Source: a virus
Direction: 5' to 3' (one strand)
DNA length: 44,748 bases
Virus genome (UHGV): UHGV-0124463
This document shows positions 22,739-35,504 of the stretch, in pieces. The number at the start of each line of letters is the position of its first letter. Position 1 is the first letter of the stretch. The translations under genes were made by a program, and so were the position numbers. The notes below the pieces were generated by a model. That model searched no databases. It was given only the letters and a program-made list of their open reading frames with translations, and was not told the DNA's origin.

Positions 22739-23529
22739 TGGACCAGCCCTGGCTTAGAGCGTGCAAGCGCCTGGCCGTGGGGCAGAGGGCACGCTTTCGG
22801 TGCTGCGGCAGGGACGCCGCCGGGGTGCTCTACAATAACCCTGATGCCTGGGAATACTATTGCCACCGCTGTAAACAGGTGGGCAAGGAGCACAAGCAGT
22901 ACCAGCGCATACAGTTACAGGAAGAGCCGAGGGTGCAGCCCTCTGCACCTGCAGATGCAATTTGCATTAGCCAAGCGCCTGCGGAAACGCAGAGTTTTCT
23001 TTACGGATTCCTGACCACAAAGGGAATCATGCCTGAAATGGTGGAGGATGCAGAATGGAGCAAAGAGAAACAGCGGATAATATTCCGTGTCGGAAGCGCT
23101 GCTCTGGGCCGTGCAGTGCATGCCCGACAGCAACCGAAGTGGGTAATGTACGGCCAGCCAATGCCGTTCGCTGCCGCGGCACCTGCCGTAGCGCCGGATG
23201 TAGCTGCGGCCGCACCTCTAAAGGTCGTGCTCACCGAGGACTATCTATCAGCGATCAAATATCAGCACGCGATTACGAACTACTCTGCAATGAACGTGCA
23301 GGCTATAGCTATGCTGGGTACTCGCTTGCCCGTGCAGTTAAGGGCGTGGCTGATACAGAACAAACCGACAGTGATACTGTCCCTGGATAATGACCAAGCG
23401 GGACACTCCGGCGCGGCCATGATACGGCGCGCGCTACGTCCCTTTATGTCGTGCCACGAAATCTACTACGACGGGGACCCAAAAGAGGCAACAATACAGG
23501 AGTTATTAGATGGTATTAGGCGCGTGTAA
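22738..23529 (+). CDS. DNA primase (zinc-ribbon + TOPRIM)
   Basis: N-terminal CCGRD...YYCHRC zinc-binding motif; TOPRIM-like TEDYLSAIKYQH and LSLDNDQAG. Confidence 0.65.
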   Translation: MDQPWLRACKRLAVGQRARFRCCGRDAAGVLYNNPDAWEYYCHRCKQVGKEHKQYQRIQLQEEPRVQPSAPADAICISQAPAETQSFLYGFLTTKGIMPEMVEDAEWSKEKQRIIFRVGSAALGRAVHARQQPKWVMYGQPMPFAAAAPAVAPDVAAAAPLKVVLTEDYLSAIKYQHAITNYSAMNVQAIAMLGTRLPVQLRAWLIQNKPTVILSLDNDQAGHSGAAMIRRALRPFMSCHEIYYDGDPKEATIQELLDGIRRV

Positions 23530-23947
23530 AGAGCACAAACAGAAAGGCGGACCAAAGGGTTACGGAAATACCCCGTTCAAAGGGCGGAAGATACCCCTGC
23601 ATAGAGAGGTGTATTGCTCGGCGAACGATATATCTCCGGAGAGCATAGTGGGGCTAGTTGTGCGCCATAAGTGTGACAACCCGAGATGTATTAATCCCGA
23701 GCATTTAGAATTAGGTACGGTCAAGGATAACGTCCATGACTGTATTGCCCGGGGTAGGGCTAGACGTGGAGTTTCTAAAGGGGAGCAGAATGGGTACTCC
23801 AAGCTAACAGCGCAGCAGGTGGACTATATCAGGAAGACCTACAGGCGGTACAGCAGGGAACACGGCACACCGGCCATAGCTGCTAGCCTTGGTGTAAGTG
23901 TGTCAGCAGTGCACGATGTATTGAAAGCTAAAACTTGGAGGCTCTAA
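23510..23947 (+). CDS. HNH homing endonuclease (paralog 1 of 3)
   Basis: Motif LVVRHKCDNPRCINPEHLELGTVKDNVHD; overlaps primase 3' end. Confidence 0.7.
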   Translation: MVLGACKEHKQKGGPKGYGNTPFKGRKIPLHREVYCSANDISPESIVGLVVRHKCDNPRCINPEHLELGTVKDNVHDCIARGRARRGVSKGEQNGYSKLTAQQVDYIRKTYRRYSREHGTPAIAASLGVSVSAVHDVLKAKTWRL

Positions 23948-25280: not shown

Positions 25281-25436
25281 ATGCTTAAACCGTCAGACAT
25301 TAACTACCTCGATGAAGAGGTAATCAAGGCGTACGCTGCATCTGCAGGTACTTTCCGTAAACAGTTTGCACTGGACAGCAGCCAGCTGATTGTGCATCTG
25401 GCGATTAATAAGGCTCGGAGGGCTAATTGGAAATGA
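25281..25436 (+). CDS. hypothetical small protein (51 aa)
   Basis: ATG preceded by AGGAGG; stop overlaps the HNH ATG. Confidence 0.3.
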   Translation: MLKPSDINYLDEEVIKAYAASAGTFRKQFALDSSQLIVHLAINKARRANWK

Positions 25437-25882
25437 CAGGTTGTATTGACCACGGACAGAAGGGAAGCACTTGCCGAGGAAAGGGCGCTGGGTATGGCCG
25501 CTCCAGATTTGACGGGAAGACAACTGGCAGCCACCGCAAAGCATACTGTGTAGCTCACAACTTGAAGCTGAGCGATATCGCGGGACTTGTAGTCCGGCAT
25601 TCGTGCGACAATCCTCGGTGCATAAATCCGGAGCACCTGCTACTAGGGACTTCTAGCGATAATATGCAGGACCGAAATAAAGGTGCGCGTAATTTGCTGG
25701 GCAGCCGCAACCCTGCTGCCAGACTTACCCCAGAAGACGTGCACAGCATACGAGAAGCATACGCTGGCGGTGAGACCCAGGTATCTATAGCGAGACGCTT
25801 CGGGACAAGTCAAGGATACATATCTAATATCATAAAGGGGAGGGTATGGAATGAGCAGAAGCATCCTGATAACGGATTATGA
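25433..25882 (+). CDS. HNH homing endonuclease (paralog 2 of 3)
   Basis: Motif LVVRHSCDNPRCINPEHLLLGTSSDNMQD; track ORF 25427..25882, ATG at 25433 after GGAGGG. Confidence 0.7.
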   Translation: MTGCIDHGQKGSTCRGKGAGYGRSRFDGKTTGSHRKAYCVAHNLKLSDIAGLVVRHSCDNPRCINPEHLLLGTSSDNMQDRNKGARNLLGSRNPAARLTPEDVHSIREAYAGGETQVSIARRFGTSQGYISNIIKGRVWNEQKHPDNGL

Positions 25883-28229
25883 GACGCAAAACCACCCATA
25901 TTACGGTAGTGTTGCTTCCCCGTACTGTCCGGATAATTACATCGTAGAATCAGCGTGGCGTATTGACCGCACGCACGATGACGGTACGGTAGAAGTAGGC
26001 CCCGTAGAGAGTGTACGGTATAACAGTCGCGCGCACTTTGAAGCGGCACCTGTATCAGAATGGCTCCCAATACCAGCTGACTGTTGGCTGATTGTGGCTC
26101 ACAACGCCGCATATGAGATTAGCTGGTTCCTAACCTTTGCGCGCGCCGAGTTTGAGGCCTTCCTAAAGCGGGGAGGTCGCGTATTCTGTACGATGCATTC
26201 TGAGTACATCGCCTCGGACTTTCAGAGCATGTATCCGTCGCTGGACGAGACGGCTCCTAAGTACGGTGGTACGCACAAAGTAGACGGGGTTAAGATTCTA
26301 TGGGAGCAGGGTGTGTTAACCTCCCAGATTGACCCGATGCTGCTGCATGACTACCTGGTTAACGGGGACATCCCGAACACGGCTCTGTGCTTCTACGGTC
26401 AGTGCGCTACGTTCGCCCAGCGCAATCAGATGCAGTACGTGTGGGAGCGCATGGATGCTCTGCTAGCCTGGGCGTACTGCGAATGGTTCGGCCTGTTCGT
26501 TAATATGCCAATTGCGCGCAAGAACCAAGAGGAGCAGGAGCAGCGCATCCGCGAGATTAAGCAGGAGCTGCAGCAGTACATCCCTAAGGACTTGCCGGAG
26601 GCACTGGATTTCAACTTCGGTTCGGACTTTCATATGTCTGCACTGGTGTACGGTGGGCCTATCAAGTACCGCAAGAAGGTGCCCTATGACCCTCCTCAGT
26701 ACGTCAAGTACGATGCCTACTTAGCAGACGTCAATGGAACGTTGCAGTATATTGATGTGTCCGACTGGCAGCCAGAATGGACGTACCCGCGGACACTGTA
26801 TAAGTCCGGCAAGAACAAGGGGCTTCCCAAAGTGTTCCGCCTTGATACCGAGGAGGAGAAACTTAAGTGGGAGGATGACCTTTACTTCTGCCCGGGCCTA
26901 GTGAACATCCAGGAGCTGCCGGAAGTTATCCGGGAGAAGTACACAGAGCGCGGAGAGTTCCGGCAGGCGCGGAACCTGCAGGATGACACTCCTGTGTATA
27001 GTACCAGCACTGACGCAATGGAGGCACTGGCTCGCCAAGGTTTCGAGTTCTGTAAGTTGGTGAACGAGCTGGCGGCGCTGGAGAAGGACACTGGAACTTA
27101 CTACTTGCGTGAAGTTCTGGACGCAGAGGGTAAAGTCAAAGAGCGGAAGGGCATGTTACAGTACGTAATCCCTGAGCGTCCTGATGGTTCTGGCATCATA
27201 CACCACCGACTGAATACCTGCGCCACCGTAACCGGGCGCTTGAGTAGCTCTAACCCGAACCTGCAGAACCTACCCCGCCCGGATGAGGATGGGGATGGGG
27301 TAGCTAAATCCAAGGTGAAGCAGGTATTCACCAGCCGATTCGGGGATAACGGACGCATCACTGAGGTTGACTACTCGGCGCTGGAAGTGGTTATGTCCTG
27401 CGTGCATACGGGGGACACCAAACTACTGGGGCTGCTGCAGGGCGGCACGGATATGCACTGTTACCGCCTAGCTTTCCGCGAGGAACTGCCGTATGAAGAA
27501 GTGTATGAGCGCTGCCACAACAAGAAGCACGAGCTGCATCCGCTTTGGAAGGCAATGCGTACAGGTATTAAGGCTCCTAGCTTCGCAGCCCAGTATGGCG
27601 CTACGGCTAAGGGGATTGCGTTTGCTACTGGATGTACGGTGGAATTCGCACAGGCTTTCTTGGACAACGAGGCTGCGCTGTTCCCGCAAACAATTGGCTT
27701 CCGCGCTGTTATCAAGGAAGAAGTAGAGCGCACCGGGGCAGCCGGGCGCATGTACCGCGAGCAGGCTGACGATGGCAGCTACCGAGTCTACCGCATCGGG
27801 ACGTGGACTAGCCCAGCAGGTGCCCGCTATAGCTTCCGCCAGAAGGAGCAGTGGAAAGAGGTTGTGCCTGGGCAGCGTAAGCAGAAGGTAATGGACTACA
27901 AGGAAACAGAGATGGCTAACTACTGGTGCCAGGGGGAAGCATTCTTCCTGATGGCGGTAGCCGCCGGTATGGTTCTGCGTGCACTCCTGGCCCGTGACTG
28001 GTTCGACAATCAGGTGTGCCTGATTACGAACGTGCACGATGCGTTGTATCTGGACAGCGCCAACCCGGAGGTTGGACGTGAGGCGAGCCTGCTGGTTAAG
28101 CAGTGCATGGAGGATGCACCTAAGCGTATTCACCAGCTCTGGCCTAACTACGGCATCATTGGTGAGGTCCCGTTCCCGGCGGAATGTGAGATGGGGGTAA
28201 GCATGTATGCCAAAGAGAAAATTGAGTGA
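25851..28229 (+). CDS. DNA polymerase, family A, with 3'-5' exonuclease domain
   Basis: Exo motif ITDYET; pol motifs DYSALEVV, RTGIKAPSFAAQYG, NVHDALYLD; 792 aa. Confidence 0.85.
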   Translation: MSRSILITDYETQNHPYYGSVASPYCPDNYIVESAWRIDRTHDDGTVEVGPVESVRYNSRAHFEAAPVSEWLPIPADCWLIVAHNAAYEISWFLTFARAEFEAFLKRGGRVFCTMHSEYIASDFQSMYPSLDETAPKYGGTHKVDGVKILWEQGVLTSQIDPMLLHDYLVNGDIPNTALCFYGQCATFAQRNQMQYVWERMDALLAWAYCEWFGLFVNMPIARKNQEEQEQRIREIKQELQQYIPKDLPEALDFNFGSDFHMSALVYGGPIKYRKKVPYDPPQYVKYDAYLADVNGTLQYIDVSDWQPEWTYPRTLYKSGKNKGLPKVFRLDTEEEKLKWEDDLYFCPGLVNIQELPEVIREKYTERGEFRQARNLQDDTPVYSTSTDAMEALARQGFEFCKLVNELAALEKDTGTYYLREVLDAEGKVKERKGMLQYVIPERPDGSGIIHHRLNTCATVTGRLSSSNPNLQNLPRPDEDGDGVAKSKVKQVFTSRFGDNGRITEVDYSALEVVMSCVHTGDTKLLGLLQGGTDMHCYRLAFREELPYEEVYERCHNKKHELHPLWKAMRTGIKAPSFAAQYGATAKGIAFATGCTVEFAQAFLDNEAALFPQTIGFRAVIKEEVERTGAAGRMYREQADDGSYRVYRIGTWTSPAGARYSFRQKEQWKEVVPGQRKQKVMDYKETEMANYWCQGEAFFLMAVAAGMVLRALLARDWFDNQVCLITNVHDALYLDSANPEVGREASLLVKQCMEDAPKRIHQLWPNYGIIGEVPFPAECEMGVSMYAKEKIE

Positions 28230-28686
28230 GTGTATTAATCATCCCGGAGGTATGTTCCCTTCTGGGTACGGTGCTAAATGGTGGCTAGGAGCCACCAGAA
28301 AGGCCCACCGGGTGGCGTATTGCCAGGCGCACGGTCTGCTGCCGGAGGATATAGAGGGTATCATAATCCGACACAAGTGCGACAATAGGGCATGCGTAAA
28401 CCCAGACCACCTGGAGCCGGGAAGCCATGCCGACAATATGCGGGACATGGTTGAGCGAGGACGCTCGGCGATGGGCGTTCGTAACAGCAAGGCCAAACTA
28501 ACGCCTGAGCAAGTAGCCGAAATACGCCGAACGTTTGTACCCCAATCCACGGAGTACGGCTCAGTGGCTCTAGGCCGGTTGTATGGGGTGAGTAACAGCA
28601 CAATCAACCGCATAGTGCGTGGACTCTATTGGGTAGCAGAGGCTGAGATGGGTACGAGTATGTACAGTAAGGAGAAGGTAGAATGA
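28207..28686 (+). CDS. HNH homing endonuclease (paralog 3 of 3), ending in a polymerase-tail-like peptide
   Basis: Motif IIIRHKCDNRACVNPDHLEPGSHADNMRD; last 16 aa AEAEMGTSMYSKEKVE mirror the polymerase C-terminus AECEMGVSMYAKEKIE. Confidence 0.7.
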   Translation: MPKRKLSECINHPGGMFPSGYGAKWWLGATRKAHRVAYCQAHGLLPEDIEGIIIRHKCDNRACVNPDHLEPGSHADNMRDMVERGRSAMGVRNSKAKLTPEQVAEIRRTFVPQSTEYGSVALGRLYGVSNSTINRIVRGLYWVAEAEMGTSMYSKEKVE

Positions 28687-28904
28687 GTATAAAGTCTGGC
28701 AGTGTTGTGGAGTTGATGGACCTGGGGCCTGAGCCGATAGACCCGCGGTATGCAGCATACTTCACCCCGGGTACGAGGCACACGGTTATGTTCTTCGACC
28801 CGGTTACTGGGGAGATAGAACTAAGTTATCCTGGACTAGTAGTAAGTAGACCGGGGGATGGTGTTACCTTCTTCCCGGGGGAGTACAAGCTTATCGTGGA
28901 ATAG
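28683..28904 (+). CDS. hypothetical protein
   Basis: 73-aa ORF with strong RBS AAGGAGAAGG. Confidence 0.4.
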   Translation: MSIKSGSVVELMDLGPEPIDPRYAAYFTPGTRHTVMFFDPVTGEIELSYPGLVVSRPGDGVTFFPGEYKLIVE

Positions 28905-28961
28905 TGATAGGTGGACCCTTGGGTGGTGTAGGGGGTTAGGGTAGCATGGAAATACACTAGG

Positions 28962-28996
28962 GTCAACTAAATAATTAAATAAAATTATTTGTTGAC
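28962..28996. promoter_or_regulatory. AT-rich imperfect palindrome (GTCAAC-T-AAATAATT-aaataa-AATTATTT-GTTGAC); candidate operator or origin element
   Basis: Inverted repeat read directly; lies in a ~160-bp non-coding AT-rich gap. Confidence 0.35.
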
Positions 28997-29065
28997 TCTG
29001 GCTTGATTCTGTGATTCCCAGCAAATTAATGTGATACGAGTAGGAACAACACAAGAGAGGCAACC

Positions 29066-30109
29066 TTGGCCAAAGTAAGTCTAATAAAACTATTCACCAA
29101 AGAGCAGCACCAGGCAATCCTGGGCCAGTACTTGGATAACTCGACGGCTGCTAAAGCATATAACGTACTACTGGCTTACGGGGAGATACCGCAGTACAAG
29201 GAGAGTGCAGAATACTATGGCACCCTTGGTACCGCAGAGTGCGTGGTGTCTCGCCAGCTTGTACGCTACTGGCGCAGCATCTTCATGGATAACAAGGGCA
29301 GCAAGGCCAGCGCCAACCGCGGGCTGCAGGAAGCGCGCAAGCTAATCCAACCGAGCCCGACGGACGACATCGGGAATACACTGGTGCCGGATATGTGTCA
29401 CCGCATCCTGGTGGTTGGGGACTTGCACGCCCCATATACCCATGTAGACGCTATGCCGTTCCTTGAGAGTGTACGTGACGCCTACTGCCCGGACATGGTG
29501 GTGCAGGTAGGTGACGAAACCGACGGACACGCAATCAGCTTCCATGACTCTGACCCGAACCTAGATAGCGCCGGGGTGGAGCTGGAGAAAGCCAAGCTCG
29601 TACTGGAGGAGCTGCATGAACTATTCCCGAACCTACTGGTTTGCGATTCCAATCACGGCAGTCTGGTTTACCGCAGGGCGAAAGCTCACGGGCTACCAGT
29701 GCAATTCATCAAGAAGTACCGAGATATACTTTTCCCTGAGCATGGTGCCCCGGCGTGGTCTTGGGCTGACGCATGGGTACTCAATACCCCACTTGGCCAG
29801 GTTAGATTCCAGCATCAAGTGTCGGGCGATTTCATGCTCAATGCCAGCCACGAAAGAACCAGCCTTGTACTTGGCCACGAACATGGCCGCTTTGAGGTGC
29901 AATATGCAGCTAGCTCAACAGCTCTGTACTTTGGTGCGTACGCTGGGTGTCTGATTGACCGCAAGAGCATGGCCTTTGCTTACGGCAGGCTCACTCGCAA
30001 GAAACCAATCCTGGGTGTGATGGTAATCACCGAGGGTTGCCCGCAGTTAATTCCAATGCTGCTTGATGATTCCGGAAGGTGGTGTGCAAGAGATAAAACC
30101 AAAGACTGA
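29066..30109 (+). CDS. calcineurin-like metallophosphoesterase (phosphatase or Mre11/SbcD-like nuclease fold)
   Basis: Motifs VVGDLHAPY, VQVGDETDGH, CDSNHGS, LGHEHG in canonical order; TTG start after RBS AGAGAGG. Confidence 0.55.
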   Translation: MAKVSLIKLFTKEQHQAILGQYLDNSTAAKAYNVLLAYGEIPQYKESAEYYGTLGTAECVVSRQLVRYWRSIFMDNKGSKASANRGLQEARKLIQPSPTDDIGNTLVPDMCHRILVVGDLHAPYTHVDAMPFLESVRDAYCPDMVVQVGDETDGHAISFHDSDPNLDSAGVELEKAKLVLEELHELFPNLLVCDSNHGSLVYRRAKAHGLPVQFIKKYRDILFPEHGAPAWSWADAWVLNTPLGQVRFQHQVSGDFMLNASHERTSLVLGHEHGRFEVQYAASSTALYFGAYAGCLIDRKSMAFAYGRLTRKKPILGVMVITEGCPQLIPMLLDDSGRWCARDKTKD

Positions 30110-30131
30110 TACAGGAAAGAGATTCCGCGGT

Positions 30132-30635
30132 ATGGTTGTTTATACCTGGGACTGCCCTTACTGTGGCGAGGAGTTTGAGGCGATACGCACTAAGCTATTC
30201 AATACCAGTAAGCGCGGCGGCCTTGGTCACTGCGGATGTCAAACTAAACTCAGGCAAAGTGAGAAGAATACTGGACGAACTCCGCCTAATAAGCTGGACG
30301 ACTTAACAGTATCGGCGAATAAGGTATGGGCCTTTAGCACTAAGTTAGGTAGGAGTATTACTAAGGAAGACGCCAAGGCCTTAGTAAGCGCAGATTGTTA
30401 TTACTGCGGCGCGCCACCCAGTACCTACCGGGAACTCGGCAGTGGGAGATGGGCGCGTAAATCCACGGTACCCACTAACGGGATAGACCGGAAGGATTCA
30501 CGCATTGGGTACCATTTAGACAACTGTGTGCCATGCTGCCCTACCTGCAACTATATGAAGTCTGACATGCACCACGATGACTTCGTAGGACTGTGCAAAC
30601 GCATAGCCCTGCATCTGCACGTAAATATCATTTAA
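30132..30635 (+). CDS. zinc-ribbon protein with HNH-like nuclease motif
   Basis: CPYCGEEF...HCGC and NGIDRKDSRIGYHLDNCVPCCPTCNYMKSD; track ORF starts at 30063 and overlaps upstream gene, ATG 30132 has RBS AGGAAAGAG. Confidence 0.5.
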   Translation: MVVYTWDCPYCGEEFEAIRTKLFNTSKRGGLGHCGCQTKLRQSEKNTGRTPPNKLDDLTVSANKVWAFSTKLGRSITKEDAKALVSADCYYCGAPPSTYRELGSGRWARKSTVPTNGIDRKDSRIGYHLDNCVPCCPTCNYMKSDMHHDDFVGLCKRIALHLHVNII

Positions 30636-30656
30636 ACTAAACGAGGACGTAATTAT

Positions 30657-31490
30657 ATGACTACGAATGTATTGGCATCCCTGAACGCTCTGGTAGACGC
30701 AGCAATCGAAACCCAAGATGTAGATATGCGGGAAACCGCACAGGGCGGTGCGTATGAGGACGTGCTGCTGCCGAAGGGTGAGTACTACGGCTACTTCACC
30801 GAGTACGTGGAAATCGGTAAGCGCCTGCCAACTAAGGGCGGTAAGCCTACCGGTAAGCCTGCGGTGGCTAACGTACGAATCGGCATTGTAGTGTTCGGCC
30901 CTAACGGTGAGGTGAAGCGTATTCGCCCGTTCCCGATGGCTATCAGTAACTTTGAGCGCGCAGGTTTCAAGAAGTTCTTCGACAAGCTCAACTACGATAA
31001 CAGCATTAAGCATGCGGCACAGCGTCTGGGCCAGGCCTTCACCTTCCCGATTGATGAACACACCAGCGCCGCGGGCAAGAAGTCCAACATCGTGGACCTG
31101 TCCGGTATCCGCCCGATTCCTAAGTTCGACCCGAACACCGGCGAGCCTATCAAAATGCCTGCCCTGGACGCCTCCGAGATTAAGCTGTTCCTGTGGAACA
31201 ACCCAACCAAAGAGACCTGGGATAGCCTGCACATCGAAGGCACCTTCGACGACGGTAAGAGCAAGAACTGGATTCAGGAGGATATGTACAAGGCCGTAGA
31301 CTTCCCGGGCAGTGCTCTGGACATTCTGCTGAACGCTGGCTCGGTCCCGAGTCCGGCGGCTATGCAGGCACCAGCGGCACCGGCTGCTCCTGCGACCCCA
31401 GCTGCTCCGGTAGCCCCGGCTGCACCAGCAGCCCCTGTGGCTCCTGTGGCTCCTGTGGCGCCAACAGCACCTGCTGCACCACAAGCCTAA
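30657..31490 (+). CDS. hypothetical protein with Pro/Ala-rich low-complexity C-terminus (possible ssDNA-binding protein by position)
   Basis: 277 aa; C-terminal ~45 aa of PAAPA/PVAPA repeats. Confidence 0.45.
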   Translation: MTTNVLASLNALVDAAIETQDVDMRETAQGGAYEDVLLPKGEYYGYFTEYVEIGKRLPTKGGKPTGKPAVANVRIGIVVFGPNGEVKRIRPFPMAISNFERAGFKKFFDKLNYDNSIKHAAQRLGQAFTFPIDEHTSAAGKKSNIVDLSGIRPIPKFDPNTGEPIKMPALDASEIKLFLWNNPTKETWDSLHIEGTFDDGKSKNWIQEDMYKAVDFPGSALDILLNAGSVPSPAAMQAPAAPAAPATPAAPVAPAAPAAPVAPVAPVAPTAPAAPQA

Positions 31491-32717: not shown

Positions 32718-32879
32718 ATGCGAAATACCCTTGCCAGAGTATTTTATTTTATGCTAGTGGCCCCTCTAGTACCGGTAGCCATCTTGTGCTGGGTGTTTGA
32801 GAAGGTAGAGAACAGCAAGGCGCTGACCGCCTGGGAATCCTGGGCGCGTAAGTTGACCAAGAAGGTTACGGGGGTCTGA
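32718..32879 (+). CDS. small membrane protein candidate (53 aa)
   Basis: Hydrophobic helix FYFMLVAPLVPVAILCWVF; stop overlaps next ATG; below the ORF-track length cutoff. Confidence 0.3.
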   Translation: MRNTLARVFYFMLVAPLVPVAILCWVFEKVENSKALTAWESWARKLTKKVTGV

Positions 32880-33847
32880 TGATTATCAACGGGGTTGACT
32901 TGTCCCAGCTCGGGGAGCAGTTAGCTCCGCAGAACTCTGGGAAGATTCTGTTGTACGATGCGGATTTCACAGTTTATAAATCTGCCGCTACAGTGAAACG
33001 TTTGGATACCGCGATACGCCGCTTCTATCAGCTGGTGCTTGAGGACATGTTCCTGGTCGGCTGCTCAGAAGCAGTGGCGTATCTTACACCGACTGGGTGC
33101 GCTAAGTGCCTGCGCTGGCACTTGCCCACCGCTAAGCCCTACCAGGGGCAGCGGGCTAATCGGCAGGAGCTTCCGCTGAAAGCGCCTTTGAAGCGGCACC
33201 TGATTGAGAACCCGGACCAGTATTCTGAGCAGGGGATACAGGTGGTTAGCAGCAACTTCTTCGAGGCGGACGACATGTTCATCATGGACTCATACGCCTT
33301 CGGGGACCGTGGCATCCTAATGTCCCAGGATAAAGATTCCTGGCTCAGCCCTATGGCTCGGTTCGATATCCCGACCGGAACCGTGTGGCCTGCCTTGGAT
33401 AACCCCTTCGGCTGGATTAAGTGGGATGATACCCAGGCTATGCCGGTACGAGCGCACGGCTTAAAGTTCTTCTGGTGGCAGATGCTAGCAGGGGATGACG
33501 CAGACAACGTCAAAGGCATCACATTGCTTGATGGGAAGCTCTGTGGGAAGAGAACGGCCTTTGATGCTATCAACCCTATTACCTCAGAGCAGGACGCCGC
33601 AGAATTCGTTGTGGCGGCTTACGCTCGAAACAACCAAGATGTACTCGCAGAGGCAGAATGCCTGTTCCTGCGGCGCTCCCCGTCAGATTCAGCGTACCTG
33701 TATCTGATGTCACTGTTGACTACTCCCAGTCTACGTGACTGGGTGCATTCGCTGCACGAGTACCATAAACAGCACATACAGTGGATACAGGAGCACCCAG
33801 ACAATGGCGAAGATGACTGCAAAGGAAATGAGCCTGCGGGCGATTGA
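32879..33847 (+). CDS. 5'-3' exonuclease (T7 gp6-like, FEN family)
   Basis: N-terminal GKILLYDADFTVYKSAA resembles T7 gp6 GILVMDGDWLVFQAMSAA; acidic clusters; 322 aa. Confidence 0.6.
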   Translation: MIINGVDLSQLGEQLAPQNSGKILLYDADFTVYKSAATVKRLDTAIRRFYQLVLEDMFLVGCSEAVAYLTPTGCAKCLRWHLPTAKPYQGQRANRQELPLKAPLKRHLIENPDQYSEQGIQVVSSNFFEADDMFIMDSYAFGDRGILMSQDKDSWLSPMARFDIPTGTVWPALDNPFGWIKWDDTQAMPVRAHGLKFFWWQMLAGDDADNVKGITLLDGKLCGKRTAFDAINPITSEQDAAEFVVAAYARNNQDVLAEAECLFLRRSPSDSAYLYLMSLLTTPSLRDWVHSLHEYHKQHIQWIQEHPDNGEDDCKGNEPAGD

Positions 33848-34004
33848 GTTATACTACGAGGGGAAACACGATGAACTTGAAACTATTCTGGATGCGCTGC
33901 GTGAACGAGCACCCAAAACACATCGAAGAACGGTTGAGCATTTGGATTCTCTCATTCACGACAATGCTATGCTGGATGTAGTAGGGGAGATTCAGGTATG
34001 GTAG
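33804..34004 (+). CDS. hypothetical small protein
   Basis: Track ORF 33735..34004; trimmed to ATG 33804 because the upstream part overlaps the exonuclease gene; start uncertain. Confidence 0.3.
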   Translation: MAKMTAKEMSLRAIELYYEGKHDELETILDALRERAPKTHRRTVEHLDSLIHDNAMLDVVGEIQVW

Positions 34005-34420
34005 CGCGCCGTATAACACGGGGACAGGTCAGGGCCGTAACATTGAAACTGCTAAAAGAGCAGGATGGGTTGTGCTTAATCTGCGGTAAGCCCATAGAGT
34101 TAACGGCTAAAAGCACTTCCGGGGACGGTCCGGCACTTGACCATTCACACCGTACTGGGCGCATTCGCGGGGTGCTGCACCGCTCATGTAACGGGGGTAT
34201 TGGCCGAGCAGAGTCTGTGATAGGTCGGTGGGTTACAGGGTCCATGCAGGATGAGGTTGCTATTGTAGATGACATGCAGCGAATGGTAGACTATCTGCGC
34301 AAGCCTGAGACTGACTTGATTTATTATACACACAAATCCCCAGAAGAATTGGCGCAGGCACAGAAGCTCAAGGCCCGCAAAGCCAGAGCACGACGCAAAG
34401 CACGGGAGACTATTAAATGA
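33998..34420 (+). CDS. endonuclease VII-like Holliday junction resolvase
   Basis: CLICGKP...LDHSHRTGRIRGVLHRSCNGGIG matches the T4 endonuclease VII zinc/His-Cys motif pattern. Confidence 0.65.
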   Translation: MVARRITRGQVRAVTLKLLKEQDGLCLICGKPIELTAKSTSGDGPALDHSHRTGRIRGVLHRSCNGGIGRAESVIGRWVTGSMQDEVAIVDDMQRMVDYLRKPETDLIYYTHKSPEELAQAQKLKARKARARRKARETIK

Positions 34421-34875: not shown

Positions 34876-35006
34876 CGCGTGGTGTCACGGGATGTGGCAG
34901 AAAGCAGTAGAGCGGGGCGATGCTACCGCCGCTAAAGACTACCTGGAGATGTACAATCTCTGGGTTAGCAGGAGCCTATAAGGACATAACCGAGGAGATT
35001 ACATTG

Positions 35007-35504
35007 ATGCCAAGTAAGCAGTCTCTATCAGAAGCTTTTAAGTATGACCCTTTAACTGGAACGTTAACTCGACGTGTAAAAAGAGGCAGTTCTAAACTAG
35101 ATGCTGCTAGAGAGCTTACTAATTCAGGATACCTTCGGACATGGTTCAAAGGGAAGCGATACTTTACACATCGATTAGTATACATCATGCATTGCGGAGA
35201 AATCCCAGATGGCATGGAAGTGGACCACATTAACCAGCTTCGTACTGATAATCGAATAGAGAATTTACGGTTGGCGAGCAGGGCGGATAACAGCAGAAAC
35301 CGCACTCGACACAGTAATAATATTAGCGGAACTACTGGGGTACATTGGTCTAAAGATAAAGGGAAGTGGCGCGCCGGGATTAGGGTTAACGGCGAGTATA
35401 AAAGCCTCGGATGCTTCACCGACTTAGAGGACGCAGTAGCTGCTCGTAAGGCGGCAGAAAATACATACGGATTCCACGAGAACCACGGTAGCGCAAAGAG
35501 ATAA
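35007..35504 (+). CDS. HNH homing endonuclease with AP2-like domain (paralog of 15434..15895)
   Basis: EVDHINQLRTDNRIENLRLASRADN plus GVHWSKDKGKWRAGIRVNGEY; ATG 35007 after GAGGAG (track ORF starts 34920). Confidence 0.7.
   Translation: MPSKQSLSEAFKYDPLTGTLTRRVKRGSSKLDAARELTNSGYLRTWFKGKRYFTHRLVYIMHCGEIPDGMEVDHINQLRTDNRIENLRLASRADNSRNRTRHSNNISGTTGVHWSKDKGKWRAGIRVNGEYKSLGCFTDLEDAVAARKAAENTYGFHENHGSAKR

Follow-up and report, generated by a model that had tools for sequence, protein, structure and literature searches.

Two overlapping genes in the virus genome UHGV-0124463, at positions 29,066 to 30,635 of a stretch of 44,748 nucleotides (hereafter the window; all coordinates are on its plus strand), encode a calcineurin-like metallophosphoesterase (MPE) and, directly 3′ of it, a small protein with a zinc ribbon and an HNH-type nuclease core, which we call ORF2 after its open reading frame (ORF). 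The virus is a Klebsiella Drulisvirus (KP34-like podophage; Autographiviridae, Slopekvirinae), and the window covers its genome completely or almost completely. On balance, we consider it probable that the MPE is a replication nuclease and that the gene downstream of it is an unrelated homing endonuclease. ORF2, judged by its sequence and distribution, is very likely a selfish free-standing homing endonuclease aimed at the 3′ end of the MPE gene. For the MPE, a function as a DNA phosphodiesterase (exo- or endonuclease) in phage DNA replication or recombination, perhaps also in the breakdown of host DNA, has about an even chance or slightly better.

The metallophosphoesterase and its relatives

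The MPE gene (29066..30109) encodes 347 amino acids from a TTG codon, which stands 5 nucleotides 3′ of a Shine-Dalgarno-like AGAGAGG and opens an N-terminus (MAKVSLIK) common to the window protein and its homologues. The product matches phrog_221, “metallo-phosphoesterase,” over residues 1 to 344 (E = 3.3e-111) and was found by tblastn in 643 phage records, so it is no chance ORF. The hosts in this set are Klebsiella, Escherichia, Pectobacterium, Pseudomonas, Aeromonas, Vibrio, and Proteus, and SP6/K1E-like phages and pelagiphages are included. A phmmer search of 1.84 billion representative proteins returned 1555 clusters at 50% identity (E ≤ 1e-3), in which the conserved unit corresponds to residues 112 to 341 of the window protein; many members consist of this core alone (~235 amino acids). 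In the record of Escherichia phage K1E (KY435490.1, 4869..5875), the homologue is split into two overlapping coding sequences and aligns in two pieces in tblastn, reflecting either a frameshift or a sequencing error.

The catalytic calcineurin-fold core (residues 112 to 339; 29399..30082) contains motif I, GDLH (residues 118 to 121; 29417..29428); motif II, GDETD (residues 149 to 153; 29510..29524), whose D150 is the bridging ligand; motif III, SNHG (29648..29659); the motif IV histidine, H250 (29813..29815); and motif V, GHEH (residues 270 to 273; 29873..29884). Between motifs II and III lies a clade-specific loop, SFHDSDP (29537..29557), with S158, H160, and D161 invariant. In a 30-sequence alignment reaching down to 36% identity, D119, H121, D150, N196, H197, H250, H271, and H273 do not vary, and the seven metal ligands together with H197 are invariant across both of our MPE alignments. 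Since the full-length AlphaFold2 (AF2) model was mediocre (predicted local distance difference test, pLDDT, 77), we worked with a core-only model, which is confident (pLDDT 93.5) and shows the beta-sandwich alpha/beta fold of phosphoesterases. The Pfam family PF00149 aligned to residues 113 to 170 below its gathering threshold (19.0 versus 21.5 bits), and some homologues pass it. A sequence-only reading of the window had described a 347-residue ORF with the series GDxH, GDxxD, NH, and GHxH, encoding a complete calcineurin-fold MPE; every named motif is present and the description is borne out. By its conserved residues, the MPE is a catalytically intact two-metal phosphoesterase.

We then asked where in the superfamily this enzyme belongs. 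Judged by profile comparison, its nearest characterised relative is gp47 of mycobacteriophage Bxb1. Against the MPE family profile, hhalign aligned gp47 at full length (97.3%, E = 2.6e-11, 199 columns), pairing profile columns 9 to 220 with gp47 residues 2 to 231 of 255 and including the region C-terminal to motif V; with the same profile, hmmsearch scored gp47 at 40.7 bits (E = 2.2e-9 at the search-space size of the PDB). The hhalign controls were far weaker, namely, 70% for lambda NinI (74 columns, motifs I to III only) and 17.7% for T4 gp47 (25 columns). A PDB search with the single MPE sequence yielded noise only, the family profile found no PDB chain at E ≤ 1, and neither NCBIfam nor PADLOC held a family for the MPE. 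Foldseek searches of the PDB with both MPE models returned weak, generic MPE matches (E = 1e-5 to 1e-6, TM ~0.45), from which no subfamily could be assigned because of that weakness and generality. In the structure comparison, the highest value went to the PolD DP1 exonuclease (15.6, 185 residues aligned), followed by MJ0936 (14.7), YfcE (14.6), Vps29 (~13.7 to 13.9), the Pol delta B-subunit (13.0), SbcD (12.8), LpxH (12.7), Mre11 (12.6), and the phosphoprotein phosphatases (PPP; 10 to 11).

The kinship to gp47 is a distant one. Bxb1 gp47, L5 gp54, and A10ZJ24 Gp48 (all of cluster A) are about 22% identical to the window MPE, which has an additional N-terminal domain of 110 amino acids. With PolD DP1, an archaeal 3′-5′ proofreading exonuclease, and the eukaryotic polymerase B-subunits, sequence-profile similarity is undetectable; the OB-fold (oligonucleotide/oligosaccharide-binding fold) domain and the DP2 partner of PolD DP1 are absent here, and the MPE falls outside the DP1/B-subunit group. 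The polymerase encoded in the window also differs from the PolD setting, being of family A with what appears, from its translation, to be an N-terminal DxE exonuclease motif of its own.

The sequence-only reading had proposed several functions for the MPE, among which a nuclease is the best match, but not in the form of an Mre11/SbcD orthologue, which we rejected given the short T4 gp47 alignment and the lack of any Mre11 or SbcD chain at E ≤ 1 in the PDB search. The capping domain of Mre11 and SbcD (including T4 gp47 and T5 D13) is missing from the MPE, as the protein ends 8 residues past the last core strand; its extra domain is N-terminal and helical. Among the window ORFs of at least 500 amino acids that were scanned (all but the 651-residue class already named), no Rad50/SbcC-like ATPase was found; the large ORFs encode internal virion proteins, tail fibres, terminase, portal, polymerase, RNA polymerase, and a 656-residue protein of phrog_6980 (unknown function). 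The suggestion of a protein Ser/Thr/Tyr phosphatase like lambda NinI is hardly credible. It can draw on the shared superfamily and the match over motifs I to III, as well as on the name “protein phosphatase 2a-like” in some SP6-like phage records, but the PPP signatures GDxxDRG and GNH[ED] are absent (the MPE has GDETDGH and SNHG instead), and homology does not extend over the full length. We therefore rejected membership in the NinI-type PPP phosphatases as well.

DNA as the probable substrate

Nuclease activity and roles in phage replication are shown for the gp47-type MPEs of mycobacteriophages, and for these only (PMC11795197, PMC12287305). A10ZJ24 Gp48 has phosphodiesterase activity and degrades linear, plasmid, and mycobacterial genomic DNA in vitro; its expression in cells lowers the amount of intact host genomic DNA, and its counter-defence effect is ascribed to DNA degradation (PMC12287305). 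Like Bxb1 gp47 and Gp48, the two-metal MPE of the window would hydrolyse DNA phosphodiester bonds for phage replication or recombination, and its N-terminal helical domain may help it to bind DNA or a partner. Bxb1 gp47 has a second function as recombination directionality factor for a serine integrase; the scan of the larger window ORFs revealed no integrase.

Four further observations point to DNA. First, independent fusions of the MPE core to helix-turn-helix (HTH) DNA-binding domains are common. Pfam HTH_23 is present in 11 of 40 N-terminal extensions of MPE relatives, and HTH_29, HTH_28, HTH_psq, and HNH_repeat also occur. In the window, the corresponding domain (residues 1 to 112; 29066..29401) is helical in the AF2 model, with helices at residues 4 to 9, 12 to 21, 25 to 38, 51 to 56, 63 to 75, and 80 to 91; it varies among relatives and is possibly a degenerate HTH. 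Second, inteins of Cys1 ... GN|C/S architecture interrupt motif I, II, or V in some homologues. They lie in motif II in four homologues (P0245, P0246, P0295, and P0366), in motif I in P0296, and in motif V in P0334. Third, the MPE gene always lies amid genes for helicase, polymerase, exonuclease, endonuclease VII, and RNA polymerase, in three arrangements, and this replication/recombination placement of phrog_221 holds in KP34-, SP6-, phiKT-, and Phimunavirus-like podophages. Fourth, the core is better conserved than the genes around it in comparisons across genera (identities are given below). The location of both window proteins in a replication module, as given in the sequence-only reading, agrees with this. 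Taken together, the HTH fusions, the inteins, the placement among replication genes, and the conservation of the core suggest DNA as the substrate and an important role for the enzyme.

The inteins, of about 290 to 330 amino acids, are inserted exactly at the catalytic motifs (GDE|C...GN|C, DLH|C...GN|C, and GHLH|C...GN|S), so that one small enzyme has three independent insertion sites; two of the inteins, in P0296 and P0366, match LAGLIDADG_3.

The same observations bear on two other functions. It is improbable that the MPE serves counter-defence as a phosphodiesterase of small molecules, degrading the immune signals of the host (cyclic oligonucleotides or mononucleotides in CBASS, Pycsar, and type III CRISPR, or nucleotides related to them). 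We found no positive evidence for the cyclic-nucleotide phosphodiesterase that the sequence-only reading had considered, as the protein does not resemble known anti-signalling enzymes and matches nothing in PADLOC or NCBIfam; the HTH fusions, inteins, and strict placement with replication genes point to DNA instead, and the effect of Gp48 is itself credited to DNA degradation (PMC12287305). Also unlikely, though somewhat less so, is an end-healing 2′,3′-cyclic phosphodiesterase or 3′-phosphatase, or a nucleotide-pool hydrolase. Such an enzyme would act with the nucleotide/polynucleotide kinase encoded nearby and, in SP6-like phages, with a ligase as well. However, the adjacency of the kinase is not conserved, the neighbours in Drulisvirus being the polymerase and a gene for a protein resembling single-stranded DNA-binding proteins (SSB-like); the Pnkp/lambda-phosphatase branch is among the weaker structural matches, and the signatures GDxxDRG and GNHE are absent. 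For a nucleotide-pool enzyme, fusions to HTH domains would be unexpected.

Several points weigh against a replication nuclease. The homology to gp47 is remote, so the function of the MPE may differ from that of gp47, and the SFHDSDP loop of the window clade is not conserved in gp47. The N-terminal domain of the window MPE itself has no significant Pfam or HTH match, and its interpretation as an HTH thus rests on the relatives. The literature on the Autographiviridae MPE clade yielded annotations only, with no functional study found. Finally, the need for a further nuclease is not obvious in a genome that already encodes an apparent polymerase exonuclease motif, a 5′-3′ exonuclease, and endonuclease VII.

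If the MPE is a replication nuclease nonetheless, it is tempting to speculate that phrog_221 proteins are essential replication nucleases of KP34/SP6-type podophages and a counterpart of DP1 and the B-subunits that works with a T7-type replisome. We regard this more specific proposal as tentative and rather doubtful; the candidate jobs for such an enzyme would be primer or end processing and concatemer maturation. By analogy with the report on mycobacteriophage Gp48, the enzyme might, under this proposal, also degrade host DNA and so blunt host defences.

A PacI-like endonuclease gene in the 3′ end of the MPE gene

ORF2 (30084..30635, 183 amino acids) matches phrog_1035 (E = 1.5e-26) and several HNH PHROGs and combines the features of a PacI-like, free-standing HNH homing endonuclease with a zinc ribbon at its N-terminus. 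The ribbon, CPYC...CGC (30153..30239; C8, C11, C34, and C36 counted from the methionine at 30132), has near-invariant cysteines and gives weak Zn_ribbon_8/FmdB matches. The beta-beta-alpha-metal core, CYYCG...GIDR...GY...DN...CCPTCN..K (30396..30560), aligns to PacI residues 61 to 120. A PDB search with the single sequence already returned PacI (E = 0.015), and a profile of 28 homologues found PacI as the best match (E = 3.6e-7, 33.3 bits, PacI residues 4 to 119 of 142), ahead of a generic HNH protein (E = 0.044). Among these homologues, C89, Y91, C92, G117-I-D-R120, Y127, N131, C135, C136, C139, N140, and K143 are invariant, and the family conserves the catalytic set D-R...Y...N and eight cysteines. 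The sequence-only reading of a small zinc-ribbon and HNH-type ORF overlapping the MPE gene was therefore correct. PacI defines group 20 of the His-Me finger nucleases, whose members lack the catalytic histidine and use a tyrosine in the omega loop instead (PMC5714182). ORF2 matches this group, with no histidine at the HNH position and with D119-R120, Y127, N131, and N140 invariant, and shares with PacI the pattern CxxC ... G(I/V)DRxDSxxGY ... N ... CxxCNxxKS. It differs from PacI, a bacterial restriction enzyme, in its additional zinc ribbon and in being a mobile cassette in the 3′ end of a phage gene.

NCBIfam and PADLOC gave only noise for ORF2. The label “T4 endonuclease VII,” which PHROGs and some GenBank records attach to it, was rejected, as there is no match to Pfam Endonuclease_7; the real endonuclease VII (resolvase) of the window is encoded at 33998..34420 (phrog_423, E = 4.6e-39).

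Comparison with close relatives delimits the insertion. The cassette (30083..30604) begins directly behind W339 of the MPE gene. The close relative Ou2 lacks it; there, blastn finds no counterpart of window positions 30070 to 30604, while the flanks are 92 to 94% identical and the MPE core is 97% identical. The same event is seen in another genus, where 541 bp in PGT2 replace 6 bp of phiKT. The junction follows the Gly-Arg-Trp codons without a gap in every cassette-bearing phage. The MPE ends differ (all tails given here run to the stop codon), reading ...GRWVGR(SK) in phages without the cassette and ...GRWC(A/N)RD... in those with it; in the window, the cassette supplies the substitute tail CARDKTKD (30083..30109). 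The ancestral MPE tail reappears at the C-terminus of ORF2, as ...AGRWVGRSK in VLCpiA1j, ...ADRWAGR in PGT2, and ...AGRWTSRS in RCIP0099. Over 30585..30635, the window ORF2 lacks ~57 bp of VLCpiA1j, including the ancestral GRWVGRSK tail, and this deletion makes it read into the conserved spacer and end with ...ALHLHVNII. The cassette is inserted in frame after the Gly-Arg-Trp codons and gives the MPE a replacement tail and stop; the reading frame of ORF2 ends on the ancestral MPE tail in the relatives and in the downstream spacer in the window. When a cell is infected by both kinds of phage, the enzyme would presumably cleave the MPE gene of the one without the cassette, and repair would copy the cassette in; we infer this cleavage and homing from the sequence comparisons.

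Two side observations concern these ends. The cluster P0391 shares the ORF2 ending of the window, and decayed HNH remnants in loci L045 and L074 end with ...HLHVN(I/N)I, likewise derived from the spacer. In loci L019 and L021, the GRWV unit of 12 bp is present in three tandem copies precisely at the insertion site, giving the MPE tail ...GRWVGRWVGRWVGRTK; repair may have left this scar, or replication may have slipped.

The design of the insertion also helps to place the start of ORF2. The mechanical frame runs from TTG 30063 (30063..30635) and overlaps the MPE gene by 47 nucleotides. The true start is probably GTG 30084, which yields 183 amino acids and an overlap of 26 nucleotides; the alternatives are 30063/30066 and ATG 30132, where there is no overlap and where the zinc-ribbon profile match begins. 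We favour GTG 30084 because the VLCpiA1j homologue is annotated with 183 amino acids from the corresponding GTG, because it is the first start codon within the inserted cassette and has GGAAGG before it, and because the 22 nucleotides between the MPE stop and ATG 30132 vary near-synonymously in the ORF2 frame. Comparing the window, VLCpiA1j, and PGT2, this variation (GGA/GGT/GGG, TTC/TTT, and CGC/AGG/CGG) is synonymous in that frame, with a single amino acid-altering change. The Shine-Dalgarno-like GGAAGG (30074..30079), 4 nucleotides 5′ of the GTG, arises from recoded Gly-Arg codons of the MPE gene (GGA/GGG AGG TGG in alleles with the cassette versus GGT CGT TGG in those without) and would serve as the ribosome-binding site of ORF2.

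The distribution of ORF2 bears on the choice between a mobile element and a working partner of the MPE. It is present in 41 phage records (only ~17 close relatives), compared with 643 for the MPE, and among 80 MPE-bearing IMG/VR loci there are three full copies and one stump. ORF2 comes right after the MPE gene in four gene orders, those of Drulisvirus, Ermolevavirus PGT2, Stompvirus BF25/12, and Kakivirus PS3. In the last, a Providencia phage, ORF2 is reduced to a 63-residue zinc-ribbon stump, while the MPE is intact and has the cassette-type tail. This sporadic presence, the precise insertion after Gly-Arg-Trp, the occupation of the same site in different gene orders and backgrounds, and the degenerate copies are the grounds on which we interpret ORF2 as a homing endonuclease.

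The sequence-only reading had instead taken the two as a functional pair, i.e., one nuclease/processing unit with translationally coupled, overlapping genes. The overlap itself, the position of ORF2 directly 3′ of the MPE gene whatever follows downstream, and the broad covariation of MPE and ORF2 identities between phages speak for such a unit, and the strict position could in principle reflect a functional link, which counts against a purely selfish element. Nevertheless, a pair is very improbable, since more than 90% of the MPE-encoding phages do without ORF2, including relatives whose MPE core is 97% identical; the PS3 gene is truncated beside an intact MPE; unrelated HNH genes, or nothing but a 51-bp gap, occupy the same slot elsewhere; and distant ORF2 homologues occur in unrelated phage groups, one of them annotated as a helicase. 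The claim of a pair therefore did not hold up against the presence or absence of a precise insertion between close relatives.

A homing endonuclease in or next to a conserved phage gene has precedents in the free-standing seg and mob genes of T4 and in mobE of Aeh1, which splits nrdA. The window cassette resembles these in its sporadic distribution and precise insertion, in the host gene remaining functional, in neighbouring sequence that is co-converted or mosaic, and in the occurrence of degenerate copies. Unlike these cases, it lies in frame inside the last few codons of its host gene, whose old tail and stop codon pass to the endonuclease in exchange for a new tail.

The slot between the MPE and SSB-like genes (30110..30656 in the window) appears as a landing pad more generally. 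Among IMG/VR loci L014 to L081, the gap ranges from 51 to ~760 bp and holds nothing, a Trp-rich membrane ORF of 54 to 65 amino acids, or either of two further HNH genes, one a 153-residue ORF (MHATSLPQYLRYDP...) and the other an ORF (...VVDHINRNTLDN...) that is often frameshifted and pairs with a third type of MPE tail, GRWCSRVQP.

Across genera, the MPE core (29396..30106 in the window) is much better conserved than the genes around it. In PGT2, it is 91.5% identical and the exonuclease 25%; in BF25/12, the values are 89.7% and 44 to 45%; and in PS3, the MPE core is 78% identical, compared with 66% for the C-terminus of the polymerase. Conversely, in the near relative RCIP0099, the MPE and ORF2 (79% each) diverge more than the genes on either side of them (90 to 96%). 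These identities suggest horizontal exchange of the MPE as a module, which may or may not include the endonuclease, and the conservation of the MPE core may be due in part to endonuclease-driven exchange of this kind.

Genome context and a second tail swap

A megablast search with window positions 28000 to 31000 matched 264 phage records, mostly of Klebsiella phages, at 80 to 95% identity. The order of genes on the 5′ side of the MPE is primase, an HNH ORF, helicase, another HNH ORF, and the family A DNA polymerase (25851..28229). Between the polymerase and the MPE lie an HNH ORF (28207..28686) and a 73-residue ORF, and the MPE gene and ORF2 are followed by the gene of the SSB-like protein (30657..31490). 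Farther downstream are several small ORFs, the 5′-3′ exonuclease (32879..33847), and endonuclease VII (33998..34420), and then a nucleotide kinase, an HNH ORF, and the RNA polymerase. A promoter and terminator scan of 28 to 32 kb revealed nothing exceeding the shuffled expectation. The SSB-like protein, of 277 amino acids, belongs to phrog_862 (unknown function) and ends with a Pro/Ala-rich repeat (PAAPA...). Its GenBank names vary from “large tegument protein” and “single strand DNA binding protein” to hypothetical, and the “tegument” label looks like annotation transfer via a low-complexity match.

The 3′ end of the polymerase gene, together with the HNH_3 ORF that follows it, forms a second cassette (28179..28686), inserted in frame with a tail swap of the same kind. 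Where the cassette is missing, polymerases end with AEAEMGTSMYSKEKVE, and the window polymerase ends on a recoded copy, AECEMGVSMYAKEKIE, with 34 of 51 nucleotides identical; the HNH_3 ORF (28207..28686) in turn ends on the ancestral polymerase tail, of which 50 of 51 nucleotides are identical to Ou2. Altogether, five HNH-type ORFs are interspersed between the replication genes (23510..23947, 25427..25882, 28207..28686, 30084..30635, and 34920..35504), four of them HNH_3 and like phrog_59, 6254, or 99, and one, ORF2, PacI-like. For a genome of 44.7 kb, five such genes are an unusually high number of selfish nucleases.

Both genes belong to known kinds, and the MPE is already called “metallo-phosphoesterase” in hundreds of records. 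What we add is the link of this MPE to the gp47/Gp48 family, with membership in the Mre11/SbcD and lambda-phosphatase groups excluded, as well as the new interpretation of ORF2 as a PacI-like homing endonuclease targeting the MPE gene and the tail-swap design of its insertion. For annotation, this means that ORF2, for which many records of Klebsiella phages give “hypothetical” or “endonuclease VII,” should be named a PacI-like HNH homing endonuclease and should not be taken for a partner of the phosphoesterase. The MPE is among the most conserved proteins of therapeutic podophages of Klebsiella, E. coli, and Pectobacterium, and its link to gp47/Gp48 provides a testable hypothesis for it, that of a replication-linked DNase. 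Finally, two unrelated endonuclease genes that have made the same tail swap in one genome illustrate how selfish nucleases would enter essential genes without breaking them, and mobility of this kind would account for local mosaicism in comparisons of phage genomes.

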